A stretch of DNA of 64,000 nt from Macrostomum lignano. Its lineage: Eukaryota. Below are positions 1-21,054 of the stretch, in pieces; position 1 is the first letter of the stretch, and each line of letters opens with the position of its first letter. Under the pieces are notes generated by a model. That model had not been told where the DNA came from, made no database searches, and saw nothing but the letters and a program-made list of their open reading frames with translations. The position numbers and the translations under genes were made by a program. The stretch spans positions 34,338 through 98,337 of the forward strand of contig NIVC01001316.1 in assembly GCA_002269645.1 (NCBI GenBank), read 5' to 3'.

Positions 1-2
1 AT

Positions 3-1646
3 GAGCACGCGAAGCATGTCTATAATTACTTTAATTGTCAAAACTTCTTCCAGTATCACCTGCTTTACCTCTACACAGATGTGTTTCTGCTGGCTGATGT
101 GTTTGAAACCTTCAGATACACCTGGTACACAGCATATGGCCTCAATCCAGCACATTATGTGTCTCTCCCTGCCACTAGCTGGGAATCTTTGCTTAAAATG
201 AAATGGGATCAAGATCCAGATTGGTACATTGAACTTCTTACAGACATTGACATGTACAATTTTGTCGAATCGTCAAAGCGAGGGGGAATCTCAATTTGCG
301 TTAACAGGTATGCAAAAGCAAACAATCCCTACATTGGATCTTACAATAAGGAGCAACCCTCAAACTACATTACTTACTTGGACGCTAATAATCTCTACGG
401 GTGGGCGATGACTCAAGATCTTCCAGTTAGAGATTTTCGATGGCTACCCTCATCAGAATTCAAATGGGACTTTTCATTGGCTGCAATTTATGAGGTTGAT
501 GTTTACATTCCACCAGAGCTTCACGACTATTTCTCTGACTTTCCACCCTTCCCAGAGAACATCAAGTGCCCGAAAATAATCGAAACTCCCAATGGAACTT
601 GGCACCTGTCAGGAACAGAAAAAGAACATACAGAGAAACTAACACAGAATCTAAACAACAAGACACGTTACAAAATCCATTACAAACTGCTTCAGTATTT
701 TATCTCACTTGGTTGCAGGGTCACCAAAGTTCACAGGGCTCTTACATTTACAGAGGAAGCGTGGATGAAACCCTACATTGATAAGAACACCCAGTTTAGG
801 ACCAAAGCAACCAACGACTTTGACAAGAACCTCTTTAAGTTGGCCAACAACTCTGTCTATGGCAAGACTCTTGAGAATGAGCGGAAAAGAACAAACCTGA
901 AACTTGTTACCTCATCAGAGCCTGATGTTATTCAGGCAAATATGTCAAAGCCAACGTTCAAAGAACTCCACATCTTTAATAGCTACTTAGGTGTGATCAT
1001 ATTTTACAAAACCAAGGTGACGCTGCGCAAGCCGATCTATACAGGTGTCACTGTTCTCGACGAATCAAAACGTCTGATGTACCAATTCTTCTATGGCATG
1101 AAGCAGCAGTACAAGGATAAAATGAAACTCTTGTACACCGACACAGACAGTTTTATTATGGACATTCAAACAGAAGACATTTATCAGGACATGCTGCAGC
1201 AAAAAGATTTGTTTGACTTGTCTGAGTATGATGAATCTTGCAGGACACAGAATGGTGATCAAGTGTTTGACGCTACTAACAAGAAAGTGATTGGGAAAAT
1301 GAAGGACGAGATTGCTGGTGACATAATCACTGAATTCATTGGGTTGAGAGCAAAGTCCTATTTTATAAAATGTGAGTCGTCAGACCCAATCAAAAAATCA
1401 AAGGGAATTCCGAAACGTGTAGTTAGGAAGGAAATTAATGAAGCTGAATACAGAGACGCCTTGAATTGCAACAAAAAGACATCACACGAGTTCTCAAAGC
1501 TACAATCTAAAAACCATATTATTCACACAATTCAGCAAAAGAAGATTGGACTGTCAGGTGCAGATAACAAAAGATTCATTTTTGATGACAATATTAACAG
1601 TCTACCGTTCGGGCACTGGAGATTAGGTTTAGGAGGTGGAGGTTAG
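3..1646 (+). CDS. Protein-primed family B DNA polymerase (pPolB), C-terminal part, uninterrupted; 5' end outside the window
   Basis: Frame is open from base 3 (EHAKHVYNYF...). PolB motifs YLDANNLYGWAM, KLANNSVYGKT, YTDTDS and FIGLRAKSY. Confidence 0.96.
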   Translation, partial: EHAKHVYNYFNCQNFFQYHLLYLYTDVFLLADVFETFRYTWYTAYGLNPAHYVSLPATSWESLLKMKWDQDPDWYIELLTDIDMYNFVESSKRGGISICVNRYAKANNPYIGSYNKEQPSNYITYLDANNLYGWAMTQDLPVRDFRWLPSSEFKWDFSLAAIYEVDVYIPPELHDYFSDFPPFPENIKCPKIIETPNGTWHLSGTEKEHTEKLTQNLNNKTRYKIHYKLLQYFISLGCRVTKVHRALTFTEEAWMKPYIDKNTQFRTKATNDFDKNLFKLANNSVYGKTLENERKRTNLKLVTSSEPDVIQANMSKPTFKELHIFNSYLGVIIFYKTKVTLRKPIYTGVTVLDESKRLMYQFFYGMKQQYKDKMKLLYTDTDSFIMDIQTEDIYQDMLQQKDLFDLSEYDESCRTQNGDQVFDATNKKVIGKMKDEIAGDIITEFIGLRAKSYFIKCESSDPIKKSKGIPKRVVRKEINEAEYRDALNCNKKTSHEFSKLQSKNHIIHTIQQKKIGLSGADNKRFIFDDNINSLPFGHWRLGLGGGG

Positions 1647-1733
1647 ATTCGGGCACTGGAGATTAGGAGATTAGGAGGTTGGGTTTAGGTTTAGGAGAAA
1701 ATTTACTAAACCTCATAAAAAATGACATAAAAA

Positions 1734-2135
1734 ATGACGACAAATAACTTTCTTGAAGATTTGGCTAACGAACTGGAAATCCCAAACTTTAGAGGAATAT
1801 TTATGAGGGACACTCTGCCTGATTTTCCTCTAAGAAAGGAATGCGGCATCATGAACTTTGACACCACCGATAAGCCAGGATCTCATTGGGTTTGCTGGGT
1901 GATTGATCCCGATCTCAAGCACAAGTGTTATTACTTCGATAGCTATGGGACGGCAGTACCAGAAGAGCTAAGAAATTATATGAAGGGAAAAAATAATAAA
2001 AAAATTTATCGCTCAGACTTTATTCTCCAAGGTCTTAGCAGTGATATTTGCGGTGAGCTGTGCATGACTGTTTTGTATGCAATGACCAAAACACGAAAGA
2101 CCTACAAGGAAATTAATCTTGGCTGTGTTTCGTAA
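1734..2135 (+). CDS. Adenain-like cysteine (maturation) protease
   Basis: GSHWVC (His), YYFDSYG (Asp), Q...CGELC (Gln/Cys) in the order of adenoviral and Polinton C5 proteases. Confidence 0.9.
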   Translation: MTTNNFLEDLANELEIPNFRGIFMRDTLPDFPLRKECGIMNFDTTDKPGSHWVCWVIDPDLKHKCYYFDSYGTAVPEELRNYMKGKNNKKIYRSDFILQGLSSDICGELCMTVLYAMTKTRKTYKEINLGCVS

Positions 2136-2139
2136 GGGT

Positions 2140-2805
2140 TCATTGTGCATTTCTCGTCGTCCTTCTTGCCGACTTTCTTTCCGCATAATGTTGAAAAACT
2201 TTCTCGAGTTCATTTTTCAGCTGACTCATGTCATCAGTACCGACCATGTTCAAGTTCATTCGAATTGATTGTTCATAAAGATCCTGAATGGTTTTGAACT
2301 CATCCTCTGAAATGAACTTATCCTCGATTGCCCTTGAAATGTACCCTATGATTGAAGTGTGCACCCCTTTCTCTTTTACTTGCTTCTCCTGTAGCTGCTT
2401 TAGTTTTTTTCGCCTGTTTCGCGCTAATGCTCCAGTAATTGCTGAAATAAGTCCACATGCAGCACCTACTGAACCAAGTGGAATTGCGATTGGGACTGTG
2501 ATGGCTGGCAACACTGAGACAGCTGCAGCAGACCCAGTTAGAACAGACACAGATCCTAGAATCATATTGCTGTAGTCGAAAAATTTACAGTGGCTGTCAT
2601 AGCGCTTAATTTTCTTTGCGTTGTGGAAAATATTTTTTTCAAGATCATCTCGCATTTTTTGAATCTCCACCAGTCGAAACTGTTGAGAGTTACAAGTAAT
2701 GACGGGGTAGAGTTTTTGTTGCTCATATTGGGGTGCACTAGGTGCTTTGGGAGCTGTGGGTTTTGTGGGAGCGTTCGGATCATAAAGAGAATTTTGAGCA
2801 TCCAT
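2140..2805 (-). CDS. Conserved Polinton accessory membrane protein (LYP...FRL.EI motif, hydrophobic hairpin; resembles the adintovirus GasderminX-type ORF)
   Basis: LYPVITCNSQQFRLVEI, a ~50-aa Gly/Ala-rich hydrophobic stretch, a basic coil and an IEDKFISEDEF tail. Family name is from memory, not a search. Confidence 0.6.
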   Translation of the reverse strand: MDAQNSLYDPNAPTKPTAPKAPSAPQYEQQKLYPVITCNSQQFRLVEIQKMRDDLEKNIFHNAKKIKRYDSHCKFFDYSNMILGSVSVLTGSAAAVSVLPAITVPIAIPLGSVGAACGLISAITGALARNRRKKLKQLQEKQVKEKGVHTSIIGYISRAIEDKFISEDEFKTIQDLYEQSIRMNLNMVGTDDMSQLKNELEKVFQHYAERKSARRTTRNAQ

Positions 2806-2912
2806 TTTTTAGGGAATTTAAAAAAAATCGACAACTAGTTGGTGGTGGCTAGATTTGTTTTACGTTTGGTTGCTTTGTCTGCAGTGACGGCAACGGGTCT
2901 CTTCGAATCTGC

Positions 2913-3587
2913 CTATTCATTGTCTATGAGCTCGATTCTACGCCTGATCTCAAACAAGTCGGTTGGATCACTTATTTCCCTTGTGCACCCTACCCTTGTG
3001 GTCTGTGGTGCCTCTTCAGCGTCAATGTTTTTAAGATTATGCAAGCGTTCAAGACGACTGATTCTTCTCAACGATTTCTGCCATTCGGTAAAAATTAAAT
3101 CTAAAAAAACTTTAATTGTATCAATTCTTACTTTGATTTGATCATGCAACGCTGTTGACTGAGTCATGAACTCTTCTAAATTCCTCACTTTACCTGTGTT
3201 TGTGAAAACTCCTTCTTCAAGAATGCGCATTCGTCTATCGGTGGAATTTCTCAGAAGATTAACTGTCGATGCTAAATTTGTTCTTAAGCCGTTGATTTGC
3301 GAGACTGCCGAAGTTATTTCTGACCTTAGTTCATTAGTTGCGTGTACAACCTGTACATAAAGCTTATCACTTTCAAACTTCTGCCTAGCTACTTTAAGCC
3401 TGAGATCTTCTATGTTAATTTGCAACTGGTGCATGGAGCGCTCTAATTGTTTCAGTCTGTTTTTATTCAGTTTGATCTCTGGGATCTCTTCGTCGCTGTT
3501 GATATATCGCCTGTCAAGGATGGATATATGAGCTGATGTAAGAGCGCTGTTGCCAGAAAAGGATTCACCTGCAAAATTAATAGACAT
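2913..3587 (-). CDS. Coiled-coil protein of Polinton A (224 aa), function unknown
   Basis: Heptad-rich ORF with a homologue at 17596-18405 and the A-rich AAAAATG start context seen on other element genes. Confidence 0.75.
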   Translation of the reverse strand: MSINFAGESFSGNSALTSAHISILDRRYINSDEEIPEIKLNKNRLKQLERSMHQLQINIEDLRLKVARQKFESDKLYVQVVHATNELRSEITSAVSQINGLRTNLASTVNLLRNSTDRRMRILEEGVFTNTGKVRNLEEFMTQSTALHDQIKVRIDTIKVFLDLIFTEWQKSLRRISRLERLHNLKNIDAEEAPQTTRVGCTREISDPTDLFEIRRRIELIDNE

Positions 3588-3602
3588 TTTTATTGAGAGA
3601 AT

Positions 3603-4403
3603 TTAAATCAGAATCTTTTTCTCCTTGTTGATCATGACAAACTGGTAACGCTGATTCCACTTGTCATAGCAAAGATTAACGAATTCCTCCTGTGAAATCT
3701 TTCTGTTTGAGTTTTTTGTTGGATTTATGAAATAGGCAGGCGCAATGACCTCATTGTAAAATCTTTTTAGCCTTTCCTGTGGAATGGTTGGAAACAGGAG
3801 AATCAGATTGCAGTTCCCGCGAATTGTTTTGTTCGGGAGCTCGAACCAATTCTGTGCAATGTAAATTACATTACAATTGTTATGTCGCCCTCTTGTAAAA
3901 TAGTTTTCTATCTGCTTCTGTGGGCCTGTCATACAATCATCAAAGACGATCAAATGCTTTCTCCCCTTTTCTAGCTCATCTGGATGGGGTAGAAGTTTGG
4001 TCTTTGGATCAACCTGTGGATCTCCATAGGTGAACACTTTAATGTTCTGCCATTTTTCATTGTCTTTGAGGTGCTTTGCATATTCGGCAGCTACAATTTC
4101 TGGGTTACTGGGAAGGCTCATTTGGTTATTAAAACATTGAATAATGTCCTCTTTGTTCAGTTTGTTTTGCAATCTAGAAATCAGAATTTTATACTCATCT
4201 TGATACAGTGTGGGAGAGTAGATGTGCAGAGTGTCATAGTCGATAAAGCCAGGTCTAAGAAGCATGTTAAAGACTCTGAATGTTTTACCTGAACCTGACG
4301 AACCAACAACAATGCATCTGAAGTGACTCGGGATTGACTCGTGATGAGAAAACTTAATCTGATTACGTGTCCAGTGAGGATTGAAGTCGTTTGAAAAGTA
4401 CAT
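3603..4403 (-). CDS. A32/FtsK-like genome packaging ATPase
   Basis: Walker A GSSGSGKT, Walker B LIVFDD, and YFTRGRHNNCNVIYIAQ motif. Confidence 0.95.
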   Translation of the reverse strand: MYFSNDFNPHWTRNQIKFSHHESIPSHFRCIVVGSSGSGKTFRVFNMLLRPGFIDYDTLHIYSPTLYQDEYKILISRLQNKLNKEDIIQCFNNQMSLPSNPEIVAAEYAKHLKDNEKWQNIKVFTYGDPQVDPKTKLLPHPDELEKGRKHLIVFDDCMTGPQKQIENYFTRGRHNNCNVIYIAQNWFELPNKTIRGNCNLILLFPTIPQERLKRFYNEVIAPAYFINPTKNSNRKISQEEFVNLCYDKWNQRYQFVMINKEKKILI

Positions 4404-4510
4404 TTTTTCTATGATGAAAAAATTTTTTTAATAATAAAACATTTAGAAGATGTGTCATTTTGGGACTAGTCTTATACTCTTACACGTCTTGTACCCTCGG
4501 AAAGTACCCT

Positions 4511-4897
4511 TTAGTCAAATTTGAAACCACTTCCTTTTTTAATGCTTGCTCTCATCTTTTCATAGACTGCAGGGTCTACACTGTCTGGATTTGGGGCCAG
4601 CGGAGCCAACGGGGCCGGCGGTTGAATCTCTTGTTTAGGTGTTCCAGTATCCTTTATCTTTTTCGCTGCTGTGGCTACACTGCCAGCCGCTTCGGCAACG
4701 TTCTTGATGTTCTCTTTGTTCTCTCCAATGACCTTAAAAATCTTGGCCCCTTGAGCGATCAAATCGGCAAGGCCATTTCCAGAGCGTTCTTTTCTTGGAT
4801 AGTGGCCTGCAGGGAAAAGTCCAGATCCGCGTTTAATGAGATTAAGTTCCTCTTTGTCATAGTATTTGTCAATGTCTTTTTCGAAAATAATTGGCAT
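4511..4897 (-). CDS. Small Polinton protein (128 aa; probable start MPIIFEK; KGSGFKFD C-terminus), possible virion core protein
   Basis: ATG at 4897 in an AAAAAGATG context. The ORF-track extension upstream is the neighbouring gene read in another frame. Homologue at 19414-19793. Confidence 0.65.
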   Translation of the reverse strand: MPIIFEKDIDKYYDKEELNLIKRGSGLFPAGHYPRKERSGNGLADLIAQGAKIFKVIGENKENIKNVAEAAGSVATAAKKIKDTGTPKQEIQPPAPLAPLAPNPDSVDPAVYEKMRASIKKGSGFKFD

Positions 4898-4913
4898 CTT
4901 TTTAAATAGAAAT

Positions 4914-5479
4914 TTATTTTTTGTTAAACCGTGAAAGCAAAAGTTCTCTTGCTCTTTTATCGATATATTTTCTCTCAAGCATTTTGTCCAGGATGTTGAC
5001 AAATTCTTTTCTATTCTCGTCTTTCATTCCGGTCTTTGCCGCTCCTAGAAGAACAGCTAACCGCTTGTAGAATTCAGGCATGCCTTTTCCGGAAGAGCTT
5101 GGAGGTGATTCGAATGATTGGTCAGAGGAGGAACTGTCATGTGGCGCTTGTCTTTGTTGAGGTGTGAATACTCTGTCATTGATTCGCTTCATTCGTTCTG
5201 GGGAGAGCCGCTCTAATTGTCGCCATTCATCTGGGCGCTGGTTTCTGTACTGGGAAATCTCATTTGGCCCTGCTTTTTCAAGCGCTTCTAGTACTTGTTC
5301 GGGTGTGATTTGTTGCTGTGGCGGTGGAGGTTGTTGTGGTTGTGGTTGTGTTTGTGGTTGCTGCTGTTGTGGTTGTTGTAGTTGTTGTTTTGGTTGCTGC
5401 TGTTGTGGCTGTGGTTGTTGTGGTTGTTGTCTTATGACCTCTTCTTGATCCGGCAAACCAAACCATTGTTTAAAGTATT
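4914..5479 (-). pseudogene. 3' half of the Gln/Pro-rich Polinton ORF (PZ-like C-terminus), split by the Helitron insertion
   Basis: Near-identical to 19810-20390; the 5' half is at 40762-41395. C-terminal motif RLAVLLGAAKTG...EFVNILDKML. Confidence 0.85.
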
Positions 5480-6581
5480 TCTTTTTCTTCTAAATATACT
5501 AAATCTCTAAGGTTTGTATGCTTGTCCATAACGCTCTAGTCTTCTAAATATACTAAATCTCTAAGGTTTGTATGCTTGAATGAATGAATGTCCATAACGC
5601 TCTAGAGACTGCAATTCTTCACCGATTTTGATCGCGTTTTCGCCAAAAGATTCAAAATTGTCTGGAAAGAAGACGGTTAAAATTTCTTTAATCTGCTTCA
5701 ATGCTAAAGGGATTAAATATTCGAAAAACTGTTTTAAATGGCCTTTTTCAATGCAAATTTTATCAGCCAGAAACTTCACTGCCAATTTTAATTGATTGCG
5801 CCAGAGCCAACTGATAAGAAAACTCACTCCGCTCCACTTAAAGGGGGGCAATAAAAAATTATTCTGGCTGCTGGCAGCCAGCTCTAATTAGCTAGTCTAA
5901 ATATACTAAATCTCTAAGGTTTGTATGCTTGAATGTCCATAACGCTCTAGAGATTGCAATTCTTCACCGATTTCGATCGCGTTTTCGCCAAAAGATGCAA
6001 AATTGTCTGGAAAGAAGACAGTTAAAATTTCTTGTATCTGCTTCAATGCTAAAGGGATTAAATATTCGAAAAACTGTTTTAAATGGGCTTTTTCAATGCA
6101 AATTTTATCAGCCGGAAACTTCACAGTCAATTTTAATTGATTGCGCCAGAGCCAACTGATAAGAAAACTCACTCCGCTCCACTTAAAGGGGGGCAATAAA
6201 AAATTATTCTGGCTGCTGGCAGCCAGCTCTAATTAGCTAGTCTAAATATACTAAATCTCTAATATTTGTATGCTTGTCCATAACGCTCTAGAGATCGCAA
6301 TTCTTCACCGATTTTCATCGCGTTTTCGCCAAAAGATTTCTAATCAGCCTGGGATTGTATGGTTAAAATTTCTTGTATCTGCTTCAATGCTTAAGGGATT
6401 AAATATTCGAAAAACAGTTTTAAATGGGCGAATTCAATGCAAATTTTATCAGCGAGAAACTTCACAGTCAATCTTAATTGATTGCGCCAGAGCCAACTGA
6501 TAAGAAAACTCACTGGACCCCACTTAAAGGGGGGCAATAAAAAATTATTCTGGCTGCTGGCAGCCAGCTCTGATTAGCTAG
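5480..6581 (+). repeat. Tandem mini-Helitron units: a 60-bp stub plus three ~340-355-bp units
   Basis: Units 5540-5895, 5896-6240 and 6241-6581 each end in the CTGGCTGC-tg-GCAGCCAG hairpin followed by ...AGCTAG. Confidence 0.85.
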
Positions 6582-7456
6582 TCTAAATATACTAAATCTC
6601 TAATATTTGTATGCTTGCTTGTCCATAACGCTCTAGAGATTGCAATTCTTCACCGATTTTCATCGCGTTTTCGCCAAAAGATTTGTAATCAGCCTGGGAT
6701 TGTATGGTTAAAATTTCTTGTATCTGCTTCAATGCTAAAGGGATTAAATATTCGAAAAACTGTTTTAAATGGGCTTTTTCAATGCAAAATTTTATCAGCG
6801 AAAAACTTCACAGCCAAATTTAATGATTGCGCCAGAGCGAACTGATCAGAAAACTCACTGGGCCCCACTGCCCAGATAATTACTCTATTTAAATTGCGCA
6901 AGCATACCAGGGTCAAAAATAAAATTATTCTGGAGGCTAGCAGCGAGCTCTTTAAGCGTCAAAGATTTGTTTTTCGTAACGCTTTACAGACTGCAATTCT
7001 TGACCAATTTTGATCGCGTTTTCGCCAAAAGTTTTGTAATTATCTGGAAAGAGGACAGCTAAAATTTCTTTAATCTGCTTTAATGCTAAAGGTATTAAAT
7101 ATTCGAAAAACAAGTTTATCTAAATGCTTTTAATGGAAGGCCAAGCAGCGTTGAATTCTTGACTGGCTGAATTCCAATTCTAAATGATTGCGCCACAACT
7201 GCGTACTGCATATTCTCGCTATAAACTGACTCTGAGCTTTTCAGCAGGAGGCAGTGTGCCAAGCATTGCGCAGGCACTCTGGAGGAAGAGAGAAATCAGC
7301 CAGTGCATTTTAAAAGTATTGAAATTGAGAGATTTACTTAACTGTGCAATGGCTCTGCCAGTACCAAAACTGTGCACACTGAGCAGCCTATCACTGCTAT
7401 GTATTTGACTGCAGTGCCGAAGCATATATGTCTGATTTTTGCGCCCTCCCATCAGT

Positions 7457-7540: not shown

Positions 7541-7901
7541 TAATTAAAATTAAATAAATTAGTTCATTTATACCTAGCGCCTCAACTAATTGAATCACTT
7601 TTGATTAATTAGTAAGCCACACTCCATGAATGATTTTTGCTATTCAGCACAATATTTTTGAGCACAAGTTGCTAAACAAATTTGAATTTGATTTGATTTC
7701 AGCCAGTGCATTTTAAAATTTGATTTGTAAAAGACTGCTTTGTGTATTACTGCTCCCGAATTGCAGACGATGCTGCTAAATAGCTAAACAGCTGAAGGTA
7801 CTGCTAAATGCTGAGCTGCGCAAAAGACTGCCGATATGTATCGAAAATTGATTAGTGAGTCCTACTAAATGCTGAGCAAATTATCAGATTACTGAAAGAA
7901 T

Positions 7902-8375
7902 AGTAGAAGGCATGAGGGGGCTTTTGGGACAAAATTTTTCACCTCCTCCATAATCCACCTAAATCCATCCATATTATCCCTGACAGAATCAGAAAAAAGG
8001 GGGGTCGCACTCGCTCCGAAAACGTCCTCCATAATCCACCTAAATCCATCCATATTATCCCCGACAGAATCAGAAAAAAGGGGGGTCGCACTCGCTCACA
8101 AAACATCCTCCATAATCCTATTAAATCCATCCATATTATCCCTGACAGAATCAGAGCATTATCCCTGACAGAATCAGAGCATAACAGTAGGACACCTGTT
8201 ATGCTCACTGACACTGACATAATCCACTGACATCCACCCATAGCATTTTCGAAACAATCAGAAAATAATCTGCATTCTTCTCCCCACATTCAATCCGCAA
8301 CGTGCTACCACATCCCTAAGACTTTAAATCATCAGCGCAGGGTCCTTACCCTTTGAAAAAATCTAAATTTTCTCT
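7902..8375 (+). repeat. Left terminal inverted repeat of Polinton B, with internal ~71-bp tandem repeats
   Basis: Reverse complement of 23535-24009 with roughly 8 mismatches and 1 indel counted by eye. Confidence 0.96.
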
Positions 8376-8397
8376 GAATCTTGATTGTCTTTTATAT

Positions 8398-9075
8398 GCT
8401 TACGAAGCTTCGTAAATTGAAATTTTCTGTCGCTAAAGATATTTACTCTGAACTACTACTTCTACTAGCAGTAAGTTAAAAACATATTTTAGTATTTTCT
8501 GCTTTTTCATTAAAGAGTTTACGAAGCTTCGTAAATTGAAATTTTCTGTCGCTAAAGATATTCACTCTAAACTACTACTTCTACTAGCAGTAGGTTAAAA
8601 ACATATTTTAGTATTTTCTGCTTTTTCATTAAAGAGTTTACGAAGCTTCGTAAATTGAATTTTTCTGTCGCTAAAGATATTTACTCTGAACTACTACTTC
8701 TACTAGCAGTAAGTTAAAAACATATTTTAGTATTTTCTGCTTTTTCATTAAAGAGTTTACAAAGCTTCGTAAATTGAAATTTTCTGTCGCTAAAGATATT
8801 TACTCTGAACTACTACTTCTACTAGCAGTAAGTTAAAAACATATTTTAGTATTTTCTGCTTTTTCATTAAAGAGTTTACGAAGCTTCGTAAATTGAAATT
8901 TTCTGTCGCTAAAGATATTCACTCTAAACTACTACTTCTACTAGCAGTAGGTTAAAAACATATTTTAGTATTTTCTGCTTTTTCATTAAAGAGTTTACGA
9001 AGCTTCGTAAATTGAAATTTTATGTCGCTAAAGATATTCACTCTGAACTATTACTTCTACTAGTAGTAGGTAAAA
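8398..9075. repeat. Array of six 119-bp repeats (last one partial), each with the palindrome TTTACGAAGCTTCGTAAA
   Basis: TACGAAGC registers at 8401, 8520, 8639, 8758 (variant), 8877 and 8996. Confidence 0.95.
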
Positions 9076-9236
9076 AAACGTGTCGAGTCAGATTCCAATT
9101 AACAAAAAAAACCGAATTATGTTGATTCAGTTATTATTTATTTTAATAATTATAAAGAGGCCTTTTTTTAACGACTATTCAATTTATATAAATCACCATT
9201 TCAAGCACAACAGACAGCCATGTAGTAGTCACTTCT

Positions 9237-10037
9237 TCACTCCATGACATCTACTCCGTCACCTGGGTCATCTACTTCGTCACCTGGGTCGTCTACTTCG
9301 TCACCTGGGTCGTCTCGAACGTCCACGGCCCAATTGGTCAGGGCAATCTCGGCTGTGACGCCTTCTTCGTTTACGTATTCGAACGTCTCATGCTCAACTT
9401 CCAAGGCCAGACGAAATTCTTCGTCGTCCTTGGTAAAATCGACGATTGCCTTCTTGTATTTCAAAATCGTTGTAAGGCAATATCCAGTAAATGGCAGAGC
9501 TATGTAACGCATCGCTAGCTCGTAGTACGCTACATACTCTTTCGCCTTTCGGACGGTCAATCCGAATTCCTCCGCAATCTTCTCGATAGGCCTAGTTTTC
9601 GTACTGAAGACGATTGCCCGAGCCTGCTCGAACATTCCTAGGCTTTTTAAGTTTTCTAGCGGCCGCAGACAGTCCGAAATAGTCACAAATATACTGCGGA
9701 CCTCTTCGCTAGATTTATTCCGTAGATCTTGTCCTAGGCTGGACAGCAGCGTCTTAAGCAGGCCACCGTCAATGCGAAGACCTTTTGCGGCCAGATAAGT
9801 GAGCCTCCGTTTGAGATTTCGTAGGAATGTCTCCTGCTCGTTGTCGGCATTGCGATTCATTGGTCTCCTTTTATGTTTTTTACTCTTGTTTTTTCCATCT
9901 TCTTCTAGCTTGTCAAGTTTCTCCTTAAACTTCTTCAGCTCCTCCGGCGACCAAGACGCTAACGCCTCCGCAAGCGAAATATCGCTTTTCGCATGCAGCT
10001 CCTTCAATTTCTCGATTGTTTTCTCAATGTTGCTCAA
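9237..10037 (-). CDS. Orphan Polinton ORF (up to 266 aa): basic NLS-like patch, HTH-like segment and acidic DDPGDEV x3 tail; putative DNA-binding regulator
   Basis: Long open frame. KNKSKKHKRRP; PIEKIAEEFGLTVRKAKEYV. The track start at 10037 is TTG and the first in-frame ATG is at 9860. TATA box upstream; AATAAA downstream on the minus strand. Confidence 0.7.
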   Translation of the reverse strand: MSNIEKTIEKLKELHAKSDISLAEALASWSPEELKKFKEKLDKLEEDGKNKSKKHKRRPMNRNADNEQETFLRNLKRRLTYLAAKGLRIDGGLLKTLLSSLGQDLRNKSSEEVRSIFVTISDCLRPLENLKSLGMFEQARAIVFSTKTRPIEKIAEEFGLTVRKAKEYVAYYELAMRYIALPFTGYCLTTILKYKKAIVDFTKDDEEFRLALEVEHETFEYVNEEGVTAEIALTNWAVDVRDDPGDEVDDPGDEVDDPGDGVDVME

Positions 10038-10117
10038 TGTGAAAATTGTGGCAATCGTTGTCGATAGACTTGATAGTGAATTTAGCGCATAACCCCCAGA
10101 CGAGGATTATGATTCGC

Positions 10118-10212
10118 TTTTATAGCTTTGGAAGGCGTGGGATTCTCTTTTTATTCTAGAATATTCTAGAAGCAGAATTCTAGAAGGAAAACACTTTTCG
10201 TTGCTATAAATA
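10118..10212. promoter_or_regulatory. Bidirectional promoter: TATAAAA (minus, 10118-10124), heat-shock element (10154-10185), TATAAATA (plus, 10205-10212)
   Basis: TTCtaGAAtaTTCtaGAA at 10154-10171 is four perfectly alternating nGAAn units; a further TTCtaGAA lies at 10178-10185. Confidence 0.7.
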
Positions 10213-10314
10213 CGCCGGAATTAGACCACCCTATCCCGTCTCTCCCACTCCCATATAATCCCCTTTACAAGCTTTCGCGCAAGGTTTTCTTTCCAACCAC
10301 TTGAGGCACTTGAA

Positions 10315-10815
10315 TCATTCTGCTCTCTCTACCCCCAGCTCTTTCAGCAGTCTTCCCAATTCATTGTTAGGAGCGCACAAAATAAACTCTGCTCCCGTGC
10401 GTTCGCCCTCTCTCCCCGTGCACTCGCCCTCTCTCCCCAAACACCCGCCCTCGGCGTACACCCCCAACCCCAGTTTTGTCTTACTAAAAATAACAGCTTT
10501 AACTAGCTTCCGAGCGATCGACTCACGAAATCCGCTTGAAATCCCCATATTGTCGAGTCTCCTGAGCATTTCTTTGTCCCAGCGATTCTTCTCCTCAGGA
10601 AAATCTCCATACTTAACGTCGTGCCACATGCAGACAGAGTCTAGCTCGTTCACAGGCTCATGCCCAGGATTTGGGTTGTTGTTTCCATCCAGCTGTATTT
10701 CAAGAGGATTCAAAGGCCCGCAATATTTATAGCCGGGAAGTGTCCAGCCTTTGTTTGGATGAGGAAGCTTTTCTATCAGTCCATGTGAATCTAACTTACC
10801 ACCAGAGCGTTGCAT
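10315..10815 (-). CDS. Parvovirus-VP1-type phospholipase A2 protein (PLA2X-like)
   Basis: LPGYKYCGPLN Ca-binding loop and catalytic D...HD.KY (ELDSVCMWHDVKYGD). Confidence 0.9.
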   Translation of the reverse strand: MQRSGGKLDSHGLIEKLPHPNKGWTLPGYKYCGPLNPLEIQLDGNNNPNPGHEPVNELDSVCMWHDVKYGDFPEEKNRWDKEMLRRLDNMGISSGFRESIARKLVKAVIFSKTKLGLGVYAEGGCLGREGECTGREGERTGAEFILCAPNNELGRLLKELGVERAE

Positions 10816-10844
10816 TATTTTATTTTATATTTTCTTTTTAAAAA

Positions 10845-11881
10845 ATGACAGATCAGAAACTTAAAAAACTCTACTACAGCGACAAAGGATTCTTTGTAGG
10901 AAAAAATGCAGTCACCAAACTCGCAGAACTAAGTAAGGAACCAAAAGCTAAAGTAGAAAAGTGGCTCTCTAAGCAAGCAGTCTACCAAGTCTATTTCCCA
11001 CCAGTAAAATTTGAAAGGCCCCATTTCAGTATTTATAAACCTAATGAGGCGCACCAAGCAGATCTTTTGTTTCTCCCCAACGACTCAGGCTACAAGTATG
11101 CTCTCACAATTATTGACATTGCTTCCAGATATAAGGAAGCTCGCCCACTCAAGACGAAGAAGTCAGAGGTTGTTGCCAGCGCACTGCAAGATATTTATAA
11201 AAACTCTCCGCTCACATACCCCCAAACCTTTATGACCGACCCGGGTAAGGAATTCATGGGTGCAGTGAAATCCCTTATGGAAAAGCACAATACAGAGATT
11301 CGCTACGGAAGAACAGACCTGCACAGGGATCAAGCGTACGTTGAGAGATTCAATCTAACTCTAGCCAAGAGACTATTCACTAAGCAGACAGCGCAAGAAC
11401 TCAAACTGAGTGCGGGGCAGTACTATACCAAGTGGACAGAAAGACTCCCCACTGTTATAGAGCAACTGAACAATGAAGTCACACGCATGACTGGATTGAA
11501 ACCATCCCATGCAATTAAACAAGACACTGTCGAACTTAAGGCATCTCATAGAACAGACAACAACACGACAACCCCACACAACACACACAACACAAAACAC
11601 ACCTCGAACTACCCTAAGCTTCCAGGAGTTGAATCACCATACATACTGACAAACTCTGAGTTTCTACGCTTTTTATATCACCTGGAGAGCTAGAGAAAGA
11701 CACCAAAAGAAGAGCTACAGATCCATACTTCAGCCTTGATGTGCATAAAATAGACAGACATTTTACCTCCGACTCCGGTGACTATTACTTTTTATCTCAA
11801 GCCTTTAACCCTAAATCCCCCACGCGGTCATTCACTAGAGCTGAACTCCTAGTGATACCAGCTGACACAGAAATTAATTAA
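10845..11881 (+). pseudogene. Retroviral-type (rve/DDE) integrase; two 1-nt frameshifts near the 3' end
   Basis: HQADLLF, IIDIASRY, TDPGKEF, ERFNLTL. The C-terminus continues in shifted frames as PGELEKDTKRRATDPYFS and PTRSFTRAELLVIPADTEIN* (stop 11879-11881). Confidence 0.92.
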
Positions 11882-11897
11882 AATATTAAAATAAAAA

Positions 11898-12343
11898 ATG
11901 ACAAAGATTGAAACCAGAACCATCAATAAACTCAATAAAATCATTGAATCAAAGAAACAGGTATTATATCAATTAAAGGTGCCAAAGTAAAAATCGATCC
12001 CACGCAGCAAATACTTCAGTGTAATGAGCAAAGACACAGCATCACAGATGAAAAGTCAGGAGGAATCCTACCATTAGCAGCTCTTATTCCGATCATTGCA
12101 GGCGCTGTAAGTGCCGCAGGTGGTGTAGCTGGAGGTGTAGCAACTGCTGTTAAAGCTGGGAATGATAGAGCCCACCAGCTGGAATTGCAAAAGATTGCAA
12201 GAGACAAAGGTATAACAATTAAGGCAGGAGAGGGCTGCCCCGATCGTGATGATTGTGAGAATGAAAATTCTATAAGCAAGTCTGACATTGTCAAAGCAAT
12301 CATGACACTGCACAATGCTGGGTTTACAATAATGCGCATGTGA
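11898..12343 (+). pseudogene. Small Gly/Ala-rich amphipathic virion protein (GGILPLAALIP motif; cupiennin-like/pVI-like type); one frameshift; not in the ORF track
   Basis: ATG at 11898 in AAAAAATG context. Adding 1 nt near 11963 gives a 148-aa ORF containing KSGGILPLAALIPIIAGAVSAAGGVAGGVATAV. Confidence 0.7.
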
Positions 12344-12483
12344 ATGTGAATGTGAAAGTGATGAGGTTTAAAACCCCACTTTATCCAGCTTCATAAACCT
12401 AACGCTACTGATAGGATGTAGAAACAGTTCAACTTTTCTATCAGGGTAGTAACCCTTAAATTTTTTTTATTTTAGAGAAAAAA

Positions 12484-15400
12484 ATGCCAAAAGCTAATCC
12501 AGCAAAAGATTTAGTCAACAAACATTTTTCAAAAGGCGTCTCATTTCAAGACAAAAGTAATTCACTAAGAGAAGCATGCAAACAAAAGTTCAACACCGAC
12601 CCTGGTCATCTGGGAAGCTATGAAAAACAGTTGGAAATCATCAAACAATTAGAATCCAACCAGTATGCGCCTATACAAAATCCTGCAAAGGAACACCAAG
12701 AGAGGAGTCGCAACTTAGTTAACAAATATGAAACTCTCACTGGTGAAAAAGCAAAGTACCCACAAAATAAGCAGGAACAAGAGAAATTAGAGCAATTAAT
12801 CCATTTAAAAGAGTCGGAGCTTGCCACTGAAAAAGATTAATTTTGCACAGAGGAAGTTTACAGAACATTACATAGAGTACACAATCCCAATTAACGGCAC
12901 CAACGGCACCACCGCAAACATCTACGACTATAAAGACAGCATCCAATCAGTTGTTGATCACACACTCAAAACACGCAAGACTTTTAAACTACAGATATCA
13001 TTCAAGATTGCGTTTTAAAATGCCTGCAAAACCTACTGAGCATCTCGAGTATTACATGACAACAAAGGCAAAGCCATTCACCCCTACAGACACACTGGAT
13101 CCTTTCCTTCAAGATGTCACTAAGAAAATTGAAGCGTTTACATCCAGAGGTTCCGGATGGGTCGTAGGAGGGATTCAAAGAGCAATTGTCATGGTCATGA
13201 AATATGACCCACTTAAAGCCTCCTCTTATATAGAGCTCCCGCATTAGCTAGCCGGTAAAAAAGCTTGCATAAATGTTAAAAATAAAGACAATTGCTGTGC
13301 TCTATGGGCAGTTCTTTCTGCACTTCTTCATGATAGGGTACCTCACCACCCCGAAAGAACCTCAAATTATCAAAATTATTTCAAGGACTATCTCATCGAA
13401 TGTGAAAAGAAGGGAATCAGGTTTGACAAAGGAGGCTTGGCGATCTCTCAGATCCCAAAGCTAGAAGAAGTGTTTAATAACAAAATTAGAATCACAGTCT
13501 TTGAGTGGAGTGAAAAAACTGAGAAAGTTCAACCGGTCAGATGTAGCAAAGACGTTTTAGATCCGAGGGGAAAAGGCGGACTGAAGTGGATCTTCTAGTG
13601 ATTGGTAATTTACTAGAGGAGGCTCACTATGTTTGGATTAAAGATCTTTCAAGACTCATTCACAAGCAGTTGAATAATCATCACGAGGCTGTTGCCATCT
13701 GCCGCTTGTGCCTTAAGCATTACAGTGGACCTGAACGCTTTGAAAAACTAGCAGAGCATGAATTATCATGCGAGGATCACCCAACAAACTGCTCTCTTCC
13801 TTCAGCTGAAGAGAAGTATCTCCGGTTTAAGAATTATCATAAGATGGAGAAGCTCCCATTTGTTGTATATGCTGATTTCGAATGCTCAATCGTGCCAGAA
13901 ACTCAAAAACAAACTCCAACTCAAAAACATATCCCCAATTCAGTAGCATATGCCTTTATTAATACAAAAGGACTTGTTGAGTATAATTATTTCTTTGGAG
14001 AGCAGTGTGTGGAGCAGTTTATTGCCAGAATGTTAGAGTTGCAAAAAGTGATTAGCACCCTTCAACCTGTTCCAATAATGATGACTGAGGAGGATGAAAG
14101 CAATTTCCTATCAGCAACTCATTGCCACATCTGCAGGAAACATTTAACTTGCACTAATATTAAAAACCCCACCGTTAGGGACCACTGCCACTATACTGGG
14201 AAATTTAGAGGTGCAGCGCATAACACCTGTAATCTAAAGCTAAAATCGAACATTCATGATCTAACAATATTTTGTCACAACGCAAAGAACTATGACATGC
14301 ATTTAATAGTTGAAAAAATCGGCATGATTCCAGACATACACCTTGATTGCATCGCAGAGAACAAGGAGAAGTTTAAGTGTGTTGATATTAAACAGGATAA
14401 TTCGGGTACAGGTAAAATAAGACTGAAGGATTCATATCAATTTCTAGCTGCCAGTCTAGACGAACTAAGCAAGAATCTAAAAGATGAACAATGTACATAT
14501 ACAAAGATGTTTGCAAGTAAAATTAACAACAGTGATGAATCATTTAAACTTTTAAGAAAGAAAGGCTTCTACCCCTATGAAAATATTACTGGGTATCACG
14601 TATTTGAAGATGGTTTACCACCACAGGAGAAGTTCTTTTCAAAACTAACAGACTCTGAAATCTCTGACAAAGACTATGAGCACGCGAAGCATGTCTATAA
14701 TTACTTTAATTTTCAAAACTTTTCCAGTATCACCTGCTTTACCTCTACACAGATGTGTTTCTGCTGGCCGATGTGTTTGAAACCTTCAGATACACCTGGT
14801 ACACAGCATATGGCCTCGATCCAGCACATTATGTGTCTCTGCCTGCCACTAGCTGGGAATCTTTGCTTAAAATGAAATGGGATCAAGATCCAGATTGGTA
14901 CATTGAACTTCTTACAGACATTGACATGTACAATTTTGTCGAATCGTCAAAGCGAGGGGGAATCTCAATTTGCGTTAACAGGTATGCAAAAGCAAACAAT
15001 CCCTACATTGAATCTTACAATAAGGAGCAGCCCTCAAACTACATTACTTACTTGGACGCTAATAATCTCTACGGGTGGGCGATGAGTCAAGATCTTCCAG
15101 TTAGAGATTTTCGATGGCTACCCTCATCAGAATTCAAATGGGACTTTTCATTGGCTGCCATTTATGAGGTTGATGTTTACATTCCACCAGAGCTTCACGA
15201 CTATTTCTCTGACTTTCCACCCTTCCCAGAGAACATCAAGTGCCCGAAAATAATCGAAACTCCCAATGATAATAATGGAACTTGGCTGTCAGGAACAGAA
15301 AAAGAACATACAGAGAAACTAACACAGAATCTAAACAACAAGACACGTTACAAAATCCATTACAAACTGCTTCAGTATTTTATCTCACTTGGTTGCAGGG

Positions 15401-16325
15401 TCACCAAAGTTCACAGGGCTCTTACATTTACAGAGGAAGCGTGGATGAAACCCTACATTGATAAGAACACCCAGTTTAGGACCAAAGCAACCAACGACTT
15501 TGACAAGAACCTCTTTAAGTTGGCCAACAACTCTGTCTATGGCAAGACTCTTGAAATGAGCGGAAAAGAACAAACCTGAAACTTGTTACCTCATCAGAGC
15601 CTGATGTTATTCAGGCAAATATGTCAAAGCCAACATTCAAAGAACTCCATATCTTTAATAGCTACTTAGGTGTGATCATATTTTACAAAACCAAGGTGAC
15701 GCTGCGCAAGCCGATCTATACAGGTGTCACTGTTCTCGACGAATCAAAACGTCTGATGTACCAATTCTTCTATGGCATGAAGCAGCAGTACAAGGATAAA
15801 ATGAAACTCTTGTACACCGACACAGACAGTTTTATTATGGACATTCAAACAGAAGACATTTATCAGGACATGCTGCAGCAAAAAGATTTGTTTGACTTGT
15901 CTGAGTATGATGAATCTTGCAGGACACAGAATGGTGATCAAGTGTTTGACGCTACTAACAAGAAAGTGATTGGGAAAATGAAGGACGAGATTGCTGGTGA
16001 CATAATCACTGAATTCATTGGGTTGAGAGCAAAGTCCTATTTTATAAAATGTGAGTCGTCAGACCCAATCAAAAAATCAAAGGGAATTCCGAAACGTGTA
16101 GTTAGGAAGGAAATTAATGAAGCTGAATACAGAGACGCCTTGAATTGCAACAAAAAGACATCACATGAGTTCTCAAAGCTACAATCTAAAAACCATATTA
16201 TTCACACAATTCAGCAAAAGAAGATTGGACTGTCAGGTGCAGATAACAAAAGATTCATTTTTGATGACAATATTAACAGTCTACCGTTCGGGCACTGGAG
16301 ATTAGGTTTAGGAGGTGGAGGTTAG
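12484..16325 (+). pseudogene. pPolB of Polinton B, broken by ~5 frameshifts and one in-frame TAG (13245-13247)
   Basis: Fragments join in order: GSGW...KYDPLKASSYIELP, KKACINVKN, CHIC...VRDHCHYTGKFRGAAHNTCN zinc finger, exonuclease YADFE, RKKGFYPYE, then polymerase motifs ~99% identical to 3-1646. Confidence 0.95.
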
Positions 16326-16423
16326 GTTTAGGAGGTGGAGATTAGGTTCGGGCACTGGAGGTTAGGTTCGGGCATTGGAGATTGGGTTTAGGTTTAAGAG
16401 AAAGTTTAATAAAACTCATAAAA

Positions 16424-16825
16424 ATGACGACAAATAACTTTCTTGAAGATTTGGCTAACGAACTGGAAATCCCAAACTTTAGAGGAATATTTATGAGGGA
16501 CACTCTGCCTGATTTTCCTCTAAGAAAAGAATGCGGCATCATGAACTTTGACACCACCGATAAGCCAGGATCTCATTGGGTTTGCTGGGTGATTGATCCC
16601 GATCGCAAGCACAAGTGTTATTACTTCGATAGCTATGGGACGGCAGTACCAGAAGAGCTAAGAAATTATATGAAGGGAAAAAATAATAAAAAAATTTATC
16701 GCTCAGACTTTATTCTCCAAGGTCTTAGCAGTGATATTTGCGGTGAGCTGTGCATGACTGTTTTGTATGCAATGACCAAAACACGAAAGACCTACAAGGA
16801 AATTATTCGTACCTGTGTTTCATAG
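16424..16825 (+). CDS. Adenain-like cysteine protease (Polinton B)
   Basis: Nearly identical to 1734-2135; probable ATG at 16424. Confidence 0.9.
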   Translation: MTTNNFLEDLANELEIPNFRGIFMRDTLPDFPLRKECGIMNFDTTDKPGSHWVCWVIDPDRKHKCYYFDSYGTAVPEELRNYMKGKNNKKIYRSDFILQGLSSDICGELCMTVLYAMTKTRKTYKEIIRTCVS

Positions 16826-16829
16826 GGGT

Positions 16830-17487
16830 TCATTGTGCATTTCTCGTTGTACTTCTCGTTGTCCTTCTTTCCACATAATGTTGAAGAACTTTCTCGAGTT
16901 CATTTCTCAGCTGACTCATGTCATCAGTACCGACCATGTTCAAGTTCATTCGAATTGATTGTTCATAAAGATCCTGAATGGTTTTGAACTCATCCTCTGA
17001 AATGAACTTATCCTCGATTGCCCTTGAAATGTACCCTATGATTGATGTGTGCACCCCTTTCTCTTTTACTTGCTTCTCCTGTAGCTGCTTTAGTTTTTTT
17101 CGCCTGTTTCGCGCTAATGCTCCAGTAATTGCTGAAATAAGTCCACATGCAGCACCCACAGAGCCGAGCGGGATTGCGATTGGGGCTGTGATGACTGGCA
17201 ACACTGAGACAGCTGCAGCAGATCCAGATAGAACAGACACAGATCCTAGAATCATATTGCTGTAGTCGAAAAATTTACAGTGGTTGTCATAGCGCTTAAT
17301 TTTTTTTTGTGTTGTGGAAAATATTTTTTTCAAGATCATCGCGCATTTTTTGAATCTCCACTAGTCGAAACTGTTGAGAGTTACAAGTAATGACGGGGTA
17401 GAGTTTTTGTTGCTCATATTGGGGTGCACTAGGTGCACTAGGTGTTGTGGGAGCGTTCGGATCATAAAGAGAATTTTGAGCATCCAT
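16830..17487 (-). pseudogene. Accessory membrane protein (GasderminX-type), with a 1-nt insertion in a poly-T run near 17300
   Basis: Two track ORFs join into a homologue of 2140-2805. Confidence 0.75.
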
Positions 17488-17595
17488 TTTGTAGGGAATT
17501 TTTTTAAAAAAATCGGCAACTAGTTGGTGGTGGTTAGATTTGTTTTACGGTTGATTGCTTCGTCTGCAGTGACGGCAACAGGTCTCTGAATTTGC

Positions 17596-18405
17596 CTATT
17601 CATTGTCTGTGAGCTCCATTCTACGTCTGATCTCAAACAAGTCGGTTGGATCACTTATTTCCCTTGTGGTCTGTGGTGGTGCGTCTTCAACGTCAATGTT
17701 TTTGAGATTATGCAAGCGTTCAAGACGACCGATTCTTCTCACCGATTTCTGCCATTCGGTAAAAACTAAATCTACAAAGACTTTAATTGCAGTAATTCTT
17801 ACTTTGATTTGATCATGCAACGCTGTTGACTGAGTCATGAACTCTTCTAAATTCCTCACTTTAACTGTGTTGGTTGCGACGTTTTCTTTAATTCTATCAT
17901 GCAACGCTGTTGACTGGTTCATGAACTCTTCTAAATTATTCACTTTAACTGTGTTGGTTGCGACGTTTTCTTTAATTCTATCATGCAACGCTGTTGACTG
18001 GTTCATGAACTCTTCTAAATTCCTCACTTTAACTGTGTTTGTGAAAACTCCTTCTTCAAGAATACGCATCCGTCTATCAGTGGAATTTCCCAGAAGATTA
18101 ACTGATGATCTCAAGCCGTTGATTAGCGAGACCGCCGAAGTTATTTCTGACCTTAGTTCATTAGTTGCGTTTAACAACGGCACATAAAGCTTATCACTGT
18201 CAAACTTCTGTCTAGCTACTTTAAGCCTGAGATCTTCCATGTTGATTTGCAACTGGTGCATGGAGCGCTCTAGGGCTTTCAGTCTGTTTTTATTCAGTTT
18301 GATCTCTGGGATCTCTTCATCAGTGTTAATGTAGCGCTTATCAAGGAAGGAAGTTGTGAGAGTGCTGTTGCCTGTAGTTGATTCACCTGCAAAATTAATA
18401 GACAT
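17596..18405 (-). CDS. Coiled-coil protein (269 aa) with three 28-aa tandem repeats
   Basis: Homologue of 2913-3587; 84-nt repeats register at 17836, 17920 and 18004. Confidence 0.75.
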   Translation of the reverse strand: MSINFAGESTTGNSTLTTSFLDKRYINTDEEIPEIKLNKNRLKALERSMHQLQINMEDLRLKVARQKFDSDKLYVPLLNATNELRSEITSAVSLINGLRSSVNLLGNSTDRRMRILEEGVFTNTVKVRNLEEFMNQSTALHDRIKENVATNTVKVNNLEEFMNQSTALHDRIKENVATNTVKVRNLEEFMTQSTALHDQIKVRITAIKVFVDLVFTEWQKSVRRIGRLERLHNLKNIDVEDAPPQTTREISDPTDLFEIRRRMELTDNE

Positions 18406-18420
18406 TTTTTAAATGAAAAA

Positions 18421-19221
18421 TTAAATTAAAATTCTTTTCTCCTTATTAATCATGACAAACTGATAAGGTTGGTTCCACTTTTCATAGCATATGTTAACAA
18501 ATTCCTCCTGTGATATTGTTCTGTTAGAGTTCTTAGCTGGATATGTAATGTGAGCTGGGGCAATGACTTCATTATAAAATCGTTTCAGTCGATCCTGTGG
18601 TATGGTTGGGAAAAGGAGAATCAAATTACAGTTACCTCTAATTGTTTTATTTGGCAGTTCAAACCAGTTTTGGGCAATGTAAATAACATTGCAGTTATTG
18701 TGTCTACCCCGGGTGAAATAATTTTCTATCTGTTTCTGGGGACCGGTCATGCAGTCATCAAAGACAATCAGGTGCTTTCTCCCCTTTTCTAGTTCATCAG
18801 GTTGAGGTAAGAGTTTAGTTTTAGGATCTATCTGTGGATCTCCATAAGTGAAAACTTTAATATTTTGCCATTTTTCATTGTCTGGGATGTGCTTTGCGTA
18901 TTCAGTGGCTACAACTTCCGGGTTGCTGTTGAGGTCTTTTTGATGTCTAAAACATTGAATAATATCTTCCTTGTTGAGTTTGTTCTGTAGGCCCGCTACT
19001 AGCATTTTATACTCATCTTGATACAGAGTGGGTGAATAGATATGTAGTGTGTCATAATCGAGGAATCCAGGTCTGAGGAGCATGTTAAAAACTCTGAAGG
19101 TTTTCCCTGACCCAGATGAGCCAACAACAATGCATCGGAAGTGCCCTGGAATTATCTCGTTGTGAGCAAATTTTATCTGATTGCGTGTCCAGTGGGGATG
19201 AAAGTCGTTTGTGAAGTCCAT
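18421..19221 (-). CDS. A32/FtsK-like packaging ATPase (Polinton B)
   Basis: Walker A and B motifs; about 34 aa differences from 3603-4403 by hand alignment. Confidence 0.95.
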   Translation of the reverse strand: MDFTNDFHPHWTRNQIKFAHNEIIPGHFRCIVVGSSGSGKTFRVFNMLLRPGFLDYDTLHIYSPTLYQDEYKMLVAGLQNKLNKEDIIQCFRHQKDLNSNPEVVATEYAKHIPDNEKWQNIKVFTYGDPQIDPKTKLLPQPDELEKGRKHLIVFDDCMTGPQKQIENYFTRGRHNNCNVIYIAQNWFELPNKTIRGNCNLILLFPTIPQDRLKRFYNEVIAPAHITYPAKNSNRTISQEEFVNICYEKWNQPYQFVMINKEKRILI

Positions 19222-19413
19222 TTTTTATGTAAAAAAACTTTTTCTTTTTAAACTTGTGTATTTAAGACGCGTGTGTCTTTTTTCGGGATGTGTATGTGTG
19301 TGTCTCTTTACGGGATATGTGTCTTTTTTCGGGTTGTGTGTGTCTTTTCGACTAGTCCTACATCCGACTAGTCCTACACCCTCACACCTCTTTTACCGTC
19401 AGGGTGCACCAAA

Positions 19414-19793: not shown

Positions 19794-19809
19794 CTTTTTA
19801 AATAGAAAT

Positions 19810-21024: not shown

Positions 21025-21054
21025 TTCTTATTTTATTTTATTTTTAGTTAAAAA

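Follow-up and report, generated by a model that had tools for sequence, protein, structure and literature searches.

The homologous regions (hrs) of baculoviruses are AT-rich tandem units, each with a palindrome, and have enhancer and origin activity via a virus-encoded binder, IE1 (PMC13513840, PMC6669502). In the family of repeats (FR) of Epstein-Barr virus (EBV) oriP, tandem units with an 18-bp palindrome serve the virus-encoded homodimer EBNA1, with enhancer and segregation roles (PMC3820569). The F plasmid carries the sopC array just past the 3' end of sopB, with a 16-bp inverted repeat in each of its direct repeats (PMC3177203; see also PMC3597684), and adenovirus has a repeated AT-rich packaging domain beside its left inverted terminal repeat (ITR) only, which works within approximately 600 bp of the ITR (PMC5033970). 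Particles of Polintons (Mavericks, adintoviruses), the virus-like transposons of animals, were unobserved as of PMC8097293. The question for endogenous animal Polintons is what switches them on and what cis signals they rely on in addition to their termini. Here, we describe an array of palindromic 119-bp units and an adjacent gene, orfH, in a Polinton of Macrostomum lignano, which may jointly serve the element as a switch triggered by stress. The analysis covers 64,000 nucleotides of contig NIVC01001316.1 (forward-strand positions 34,338 to 98,337), hereafter the window, and all coordinates are those of the window.

A palindromic tandem array beside the left inverted repeat

The array occupies 8400-9077, 499-1176 nt from the left end of a 16.1-kb Polinton that spans 7902-24009. 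An initial annotation had described six units at an exact 119-bp period. The period is indeed exactly 119 bp and free of indels, and the array consists of five full units plus an 84-bp sixth (Tandem Repeats Finder, TRF: 8400-9077, 5.7 copies, 96% matches). Pairs of full units show 0-4 differences over 119 sites, with none between units 2 and 5, and the units are 96-100% alike overall. The left terminal inverted repeat (TIR) ends at 8378 and the array begins 21 bp inward of it. As annotated, the array lies at the left end only: copies of the unit were sought across the 64-kb window and in the right TIR, and none was found besides the array itself, which has an AT content of 71%.

Each unit was said to hold an 18-bp palindrome, with one mismatch in unit 4. 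The palindrome (dyad 1, TTTACGAAGCTTCGTAAA) is perfect in four of the six units, namely 2 (8518-8535), 3, 5, and 6 (starting at 8637, 8875, and 8994), and the copy in unit 4 (8756) does have one mismatch; the copy in unit 1, short of the outer base, still forms a perfect 16-mer (8400-8415), a detail that had been missed. The centre of the palindrome is a HindIII core. No other near-palindrome within 3 mismatches of dyad 1 exists elsewhere in the 64-kb window. The second annotated motif holds up as well. The octamer AGTAGAAG is present on the minus strand in all six units (e.g., 8459-8466), in a longer form in five of them, and is identical to the first 8 nt of the element (7902-7909). The octamer is also the left half of a second dyad (dyad 2, 8578-8593 in unit 2; also at 8459, 8697, 8816, 8935, and 9054), the other half of which is degenerate and terminus-like too. 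When dyad 2 is compared with an end-to-end fusion of the two termini of the element, 13-15 of 16 sites match.

Because the six copies descend from one unit and are not independent, chance was judged per unit, using 20,000 dinucleotide shuffles. A palindrome of at least 18 bp arose in only 48 of the 20,000 shuffles. By contrast, the terminal octamer arose in 472 (2.4%) and has an extra copy in the host flank, at 24279, so that by itself it is a weak signal. The likeness of dyad 2 to fused termini is less readily obtained (89 of 20,000 shuffles reach 13 matches and 2 reach 15), in a test that was post hoc. An origin of the 119-mer as an old dimer of approximately 60-bp halves was rejected, since 362 of 400 shuffles score equally high. 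The single-stranded DNA fold of the unit is no better than that of shuffles (z -0.15), and searches for Rfam families and tRNAs found none. A TATA box on the minus strand (8390-8396) lies 4 bp from the first palindrome and, facing outward, reads into the left TIR; no equivalent exists at the right end.

orfH, a neighbour with a predicted helix-turn-helix

The 3' end of orfH (open frame 9237-10106, minus strand; first ATG at 9860) is 160 bp from the array. Between the two lies an AATAAA on the same strand (9137-9142), the likely polyadenylation signal of orfH, with which the array would fall outside the orfH mRNA. Upstream of the gene there is a TATA box motif (10118-10124, minus strand) and, 29 bp further upstream, a run of four perfect alternating nGAAn pentamers (10153-10172), which we take to be a heat-shock element. 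This is the only run of at least three such pentamers in the 64 kb, and runs of four appear in 0 of 300 shuffles of the element. Among the listed orfH substitutions, 8 of 18 are synonymous versus 22.6% expected (P 0.03, with two listed 5'-end rows left out).

The orfH protein has a predicted helical N-terminus, a basic patch, a long dimerising helix, a helix-turn-helix (HTH), and an acidic, disordered tail. AlphaFold on 8 sequences gave a mean predicted local distance difference test (pLDDT) score of 78, with helices at 112-147 (the long one), 153-159, and 164-179. In three structure searches, helices 112-179 resemble HTH DNA-binding domains. The search with the low-confidence model gave Z 7.0 for EsrB (63 aa, root-mean-square deviation [rmsd] 2.7) and Z 6.0 for sigma region 4 (rmsd 1.4-1.9). 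A second search returned DeoR (Z 4.8), KorB (Z 4.7), and Spo0J and TrpR (both Z 4.1). In a third, ParB-family domains took up 8 of the first 11 rows, with Z 3.9-4.8. Foldseek gave no match at E<=0.001, and a search of PDB sequences gave none. Taken together, the models suggest that orfH likely carries an HTH. Membership of the ParB family is not established: Z-scores of ParB-type HTHs against orfH (3.6-4.8) are level with those of other HTH families, and a profile comparison with six ParB-type proteins (hhalign) lands on the HTH with E 0.0011 and a probability of 19.9%. The GxxRxxA patch, a mark of the N-terminal ParB domain that is also visible in alignment A2, is absent from orfH and from four of five homologs; the fifth matches only in its extreme C-terminal tail.

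Modelled as a homodimer, orfH residues 60-240 reach a score of 0.81, whereas the highest of 3 controls is 0.04; runs agree in at least 93% of contacts, and pLDDT is at least 87. Among microbial proteins, the score mark used is attained by 21 of 30 homodimers of solved structure and by 0 of 23 single chains; among eukaryotic ones, the counts are 17 of 29 and 0 of 30. The predicted interface is the long helix, packed antiparallel about residue 129. We infer that this arrangement, with one HTH at each end of the dimer, provides the geometry needed for a dyad site. Thus, orfH is a predicted homodimer with an HTH and an acidic tail.

Homologs of orfH are few. phmmer found 7 at E<=1e-3 among 1.84 billion proteins, and a word-based search found none. 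Three homolog clusters consist of named proteins of Macrostomum lignano; one of them has 8 members and another 4. The proteins from this species include PAA50526.1, PAA45997.1, PAA55485.1, PAA51773.1, PAA59843.1, and PAA48200.1. The P0002 and P0007 clusters are multi-copy and lack informative annotation. As the clusters are multi-copy in this species, the family is probably mobile, which suggests a mobile gene of an unnamed HTH family. The nearest named relatives are from a flatworm (19-28% identity), and an acidic C-terminal stretch, disordered in the model, is present in orfH and most homologs. Searches of metagenomes for orfH-related loci found none, the clusters that atlas searches returned, at 0.91 and with low recognition, were all unnamed, and none of ten window proteins has an exact-sequence match in the protein collection.

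A possible stress-triggered switch and its alternatives

The initial annotation had offered the array as a platform for a dimeric protein or as an enhancer. That proposal now has a candidate binder next door, since the adjacent orfH is a predicted HTH homodimer with an acidic tail. Our preferred reading, which we hold tentatively and with considerable doubt, is that stress-induced orfH dimers bind the palindromes and that the array is an enhancer, working like baculovirus IE1 and hr but assembled from unrelated parts. Between the left TIR and the PLA2 gene, array and orfH would make up a single accessory cassette. Under stress, the host heat-shock factor would turn orfH on, and orfH dimers would load on the 18-bp palindromes, one half-site per subunit, with six sites in a row as a cooperative platform. 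The acidic tails would then exert enhancer action on the element's own genes and start its lytic or transposition programme. The locus offers a putative trigger (the heat-shock element), regulator (orfH), and target (the dyad array), each of which can be tested as an isolated part.

For a view beyond this copy, we compared four sequencing runs, from four studies and with two organism labels, over a single repeat period and the 1.4 kb that follow it. Of 24 listed runs, 20 contain part of the left end, and no RNA run is on the list. The initial annotation had named an array unique to this copy as a refutation; the 119-bp unit, however, occurs in contigs of all four runs examined, and the unit is for that reason a trait of the family and not private to one copy. 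In organism B, a go-back joint of 119 indicates that the unit is tandem there too. Relative to single-contig parts of orfH, the summed depth of the unit is 15-25x in three runs and 3-8x in the fourth; such sums, inflated by overlapping contigs, are no copy number, and they are consistent with a modest array and not with a large host satellite. In other copies, the array stops just past the palindrome, after which the same flank resumes at 9096-9105. The ends of the array thus coincide with the palindrome, on the left in this copy and on the right in others. Contigs at the 3' end of the PLA2 gene continue into other sequences at 10320-10325 and are 15-93x deeper than orfH (again, depth is no copy number). 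Many related elements therefore seem to lack the cassette, and the array with orfH has the look of an accessory that only some family members carry. One loose-end motif from the run contigs has no match in the window. Outside these runs, the palindrome pattern has 0 matches in viral contigs and metagenomes, and no loci related to the integrase or PolB were found in viral contigs. Two matches to the pattern in prokaryote genomes are single, with no repeats around them, and were taken as chance.

A number of observations weigh against the switch. The proposed binding of orfH to the palindrome is deduced solely from adjacency and symmetry. All structural Z-scores fall inside the tool's stated background range, and no Pfam or PHROG HTH family is significant, the best being HTH_60 with E 0.066 in one member. 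Upstream of 9860, the frame has no ATG in this copy, yet homologs align approximately 60 residues further upstream, so that the start of orfH may be damaged here; the PolB of this copy is broken as well. Tandem duplication is frequent in the element and the window (98 TRF rows). Among the runs, X1 and X2 contain a minor, approximately 63-bp variant of the unit that lacks dyad 1 (joint 9077 to 9037; approximately 2% of depth), and the terminal octamer is broken in a loose end of X2. Some contigs of X2 and X15 diverge to different sequence at 9149, which means that orfH need not follow every array, and no contig in the four runs spans both array and orfH. Finally, drift of the palindrome relative to its spacer had been set as a test beforehand. 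Within the 16 arm bases of dyad 1 lies 1 of 18 variable columns, versus 2.4 expected (P 0.26), i.e., there is no significant extra conservation; for the arms of dyad 2, the figures are 2 of 18 and 2.0. The 18 columns are pooled, 9 from the window and 9 from contig rows (40 of 88 rows).

Several of these points are what the main rival, a neutral subterminal minisatellite, would produce; we regard it as somewhat unlikely. The array would have arisen by slippage in strand-displacement replication, helped by the hairpin-forming palindrome; the 119-bp stretch would be copied with the element, and the HTH gene next to it would be coincidental. Units that are 96-100% alike, including an identical pair three units apart, point to recent turnover. 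The TIRs and an internal gene hold tandem repeats of their own, in a window with 98 TRF rows. Array ends at the palindrome on either side, variants without dyad 1 or with a broken octamer, and arms without significant conservation also fit. On the other hand, a palindrome of this length is rare in shuffles of the unit, the tandem unit is retained under two organism labels, and the neighbouring gene encodes a predicted dimeric HTH protein. Moreover, in a diverged full-period contig, 5 of 6 listed differences are in columns 22-40 between the dyads, the sixth is in the palindrome centre, and none is in the arms; these are small numbers, with two differences private to the last unit of the window set aside and 2 of 10 differences outside the listing. 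Were the array neutral, the HTH gene with its putative heat-shock promoter would still represent an uncharacterised family of Polinton accessory genes, and the heat-shock element would still be a possible stress trigger.

Quite improbable, in our view, is a partition or tether site, in which orfH dimers on the array would act as a handle like sopC/SopB or FR/EBNA1 that keeps an excised, extrachromosomal form in the nucleus or on mitotic chromosomes. The layout is like that of sopB-sopC, and the tandem 18-bp palindromes of EBV FR serve segregation. ParB-family DNA-binding domains align to orfH over 67-86 residues, longer than plain HTH matches, and the profile comparison with six ParB-type proteins falls on the HTH. 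However, the probability of that profile match is just 19.9%, the GxxRxxA patch is missing from orfH and from the N-terminal part of the five homologs, and the predicted dimer forms via the helix before the HTH, more like TrpR (Z 4.1, 95 aa). The Pfam scan shows no ParA-type partner among the genes of the element, and a stress-inducible promoter would suit a switch better than a maintenance factor. A combined version, in which a lineage of animal Polintons would have its own stress-inducible control cassette and heat-shock factor would induce an HTH dimer with a ParB-like fold that acts on a centromere-like palindrome array, both reactivating the element and holding its excised extrachromosomal form, seems to us unlikely. 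If true, it would be a first example of a cis element with its cognate regulator for Polinton reactivation, and a virus-like transposon of an animal would show stress induction of the prophage kind.

A one-ended packaging signal, or a helper of replication or integration, is very unlikely. In this reading, the packaging ATPase would recognise the left end by the array, or the integrase or terminal protein would find extra terminus-like sites in dyad 2. Like the adenovirus packaging domain, the array is one-ended, AT-rich, and close to the inverted repeat, and dyad 2 resembles fused termini. Yet the TTTG-N8-CG motif has 0 matches on either strand of 7902-9240, and the apparent lack of the cassette from many related elements fits an accessory function better than an essential signal. 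A helper role also sits poorly with the octamer being broken in a variant. The initial annotation's idea of auxiliary origin or terminal-protein sites has weak support: the octamer appears by chance in 2.4% of shuffles and is broken in that variant, and protein-primed replication starts at the termini. Least credible is a site at which a host factor binds (an enhancer, silencer, or boundary) while orfH is at work elsewhere: the palindrome shares its outer 7 bp with the hr palindrome of Bombyx mori nucleopolyhedrovirus (BmNPV), hrs recruit host bZIP factors (PMC13513840), and a TATA box directed into the TIR is only 4 bp from the first palindrome, but no such host factor was identified, the spacing of the arms differs, and the likeness to hr, noted post hoc (1.2e-4 when one arm is fixed, uncorrected for the many motifs that might have been compared), is probably a coincidence.

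The host element and comparison with known systems

The TIRs of the Polinton are 477 bp, with 468 of 477 positions identical between left (7902-8378, plus strand) and right (23532-24009, minus strand, array-free). AAGAAT forms the 6-bp target site duplication (TSD), at 7896-7901 (plus strand) and 24010-24015. The ends read AGTAGA, one base off (AGT)2; Polinton ends have the motifs (AGT)2 or (AG)3 (PMC8097293). In order along the element, the Pfam scan identified a parvovirus-type PLA2 gene (10315-10815, minus strand; PF08398, E 6.5e-13), a retroviral-type integrase (10845-11693, plus; PF00665, E 2.1e-9), a protein-primed PolB (12876-16325, plus; PF03175, E 1.3e-4, one piece, below the cut-off), an adenovirus-type protease (16424-16825, plus; PF00770, E 1.6e-4), an A32-type packaging ATPase (18421-19221, minus; PF04665, E 7.5e-7), and a double jelly-roll major capsid protein (21055-22350, plus; PF21738, E 5.2e-9), as well as protein X. 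The PolB is scattered over several frames, which marks this copy as broken. With TIRs, a TSD, and genes for PolB (broken), integrase, ATPase, protease, and capsid, the element has the features of a Polinton; its TIRs, TSD, size, and accessory regions agree with the description in PMC8097293, and PLA2 and protein X with the Alpha-type virion module (PMC8502044).

Other repeats are found in and around the element. The left TIR contains 81-bp (x2.6) and 23-bp (x2.1) tandem repeats, and a gene of coiled-coil-like character has an in-frame 84-bp repeat (x2.7) at 17812-18039. A fragment at 3128-3203 has a single copy of that 84-bp repeat, i.e., copy number differs between elements. The stretch 23126-23531, which separates the minor-capsid-like gene from the right TIR, is non-coding and has short inverted repeats near 23270-23330. 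The window holds two further Polinton fragments, at 1-5494 (81-95% identical to the full element) and 40762-42321 (87%); neither reaches the left end, so they are uninformative on the array. Several Polinton subfamilies cluster in the 64 kb. Where the first fragment breaks off, a 345-bp tandem array (x3.8; 5543-6859) begins that is unrelated to the 119-bp unit. The remainder includes a G+C-rich Helitron remnant in pieces (43760-49390; Helitron_like_N and PIF1 matches), host satellites of 23 and 18 bp (27961-29164, 30923-33913, 34049-34530, and 40051-40451), and short TTAGGG runs at 30033, 53005, 55476, and 62466.

How does the locus compare with described systems? Polintons share TIRs, a 6-bp TSD, an end close to the AGT type, the core genes, PLA2, protein X, and accessory ORFs flanking the core, but the accessible text of PMC8097293 and PMC8502044 mentions neither an array of palindromes nor an HTH partner or a heat-shock promoter. 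A broader literature search found none of the three for Polintons either, with most subscription journals, Repbase reports, and supplements outside its scope. The initial annotation had called the array hr/oriP-like, and the likeness of anatomy stands, whereas the defining features of hrs fail. As in hr/IE1, AT-rich tandem units each contain a palindrome, the outer arms of which share 7 bp with BmNPV hr. However, baculoviruses have several arrays dispersed over the genome, with approximately 72-bp units and an imperfect 30-mer (approximately) around an EcoRI core (PMC13513840); here, a single array at one end of a linear, protein-primed element has 119-bp units and a perfect 18-mer with a HindIII core. 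No IE1-like similarity of orfH appeared in the searches run, which included no direct comparison with IE1. With EBV oriP, only the anatomy is shared: FR has 20 x 30 bp versus 5.7 x 119 bp here, there is no counterpart here of oriP's dyad symmetry (DS), and EBNA1 is a beta-barrel dimer, whereas orfH is a predicted, mostly helical HTH dimer. An EBNA1-type beta-barrel is not among the orfH structure-search matches listed; the rest of the element could still encode one.

Adenovirus, whose linear genome is of a related, virus-like kind and encodes protease, protein X, and a packaging ATPase, also has its packaging domain (A-repeats) next to one inverted repeat, the left. Its repeats are bipartite and short, not palindromic tandem units, and their motif is absent from the left end of the Polinton. 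In F-plasmid sopC/SopB, of the ParB family (which also includes KorB, Spo0J, Noc, and VirB), a direct-repeat array with a 16-18-bp dyad lies just behind the 3' end of an HTH gene; we saw the sopC repeats directly in sequence, immediately past the sopB 3' end. There is also a weak structural likeness of the HTH and the helices that follow, but orfH has no ParB N-terminal domain motif and no ParA partner, dimerises through another part, and belongs to a eukaryotic host. The array was therefore assigned to none of these classes, since it fails the dispersal and palindrome type of hrs, the N-terminal motif of ParB, and the motif of A-repeats. If functional, it would be an addition to the palindromic repeat arrays that serve virus-encoded dimers, with a layout closest to sopB-sopC, a position that recalls the adenovirus packaging domain, and a function like that of hr/IE1 or FR/EBNA1.
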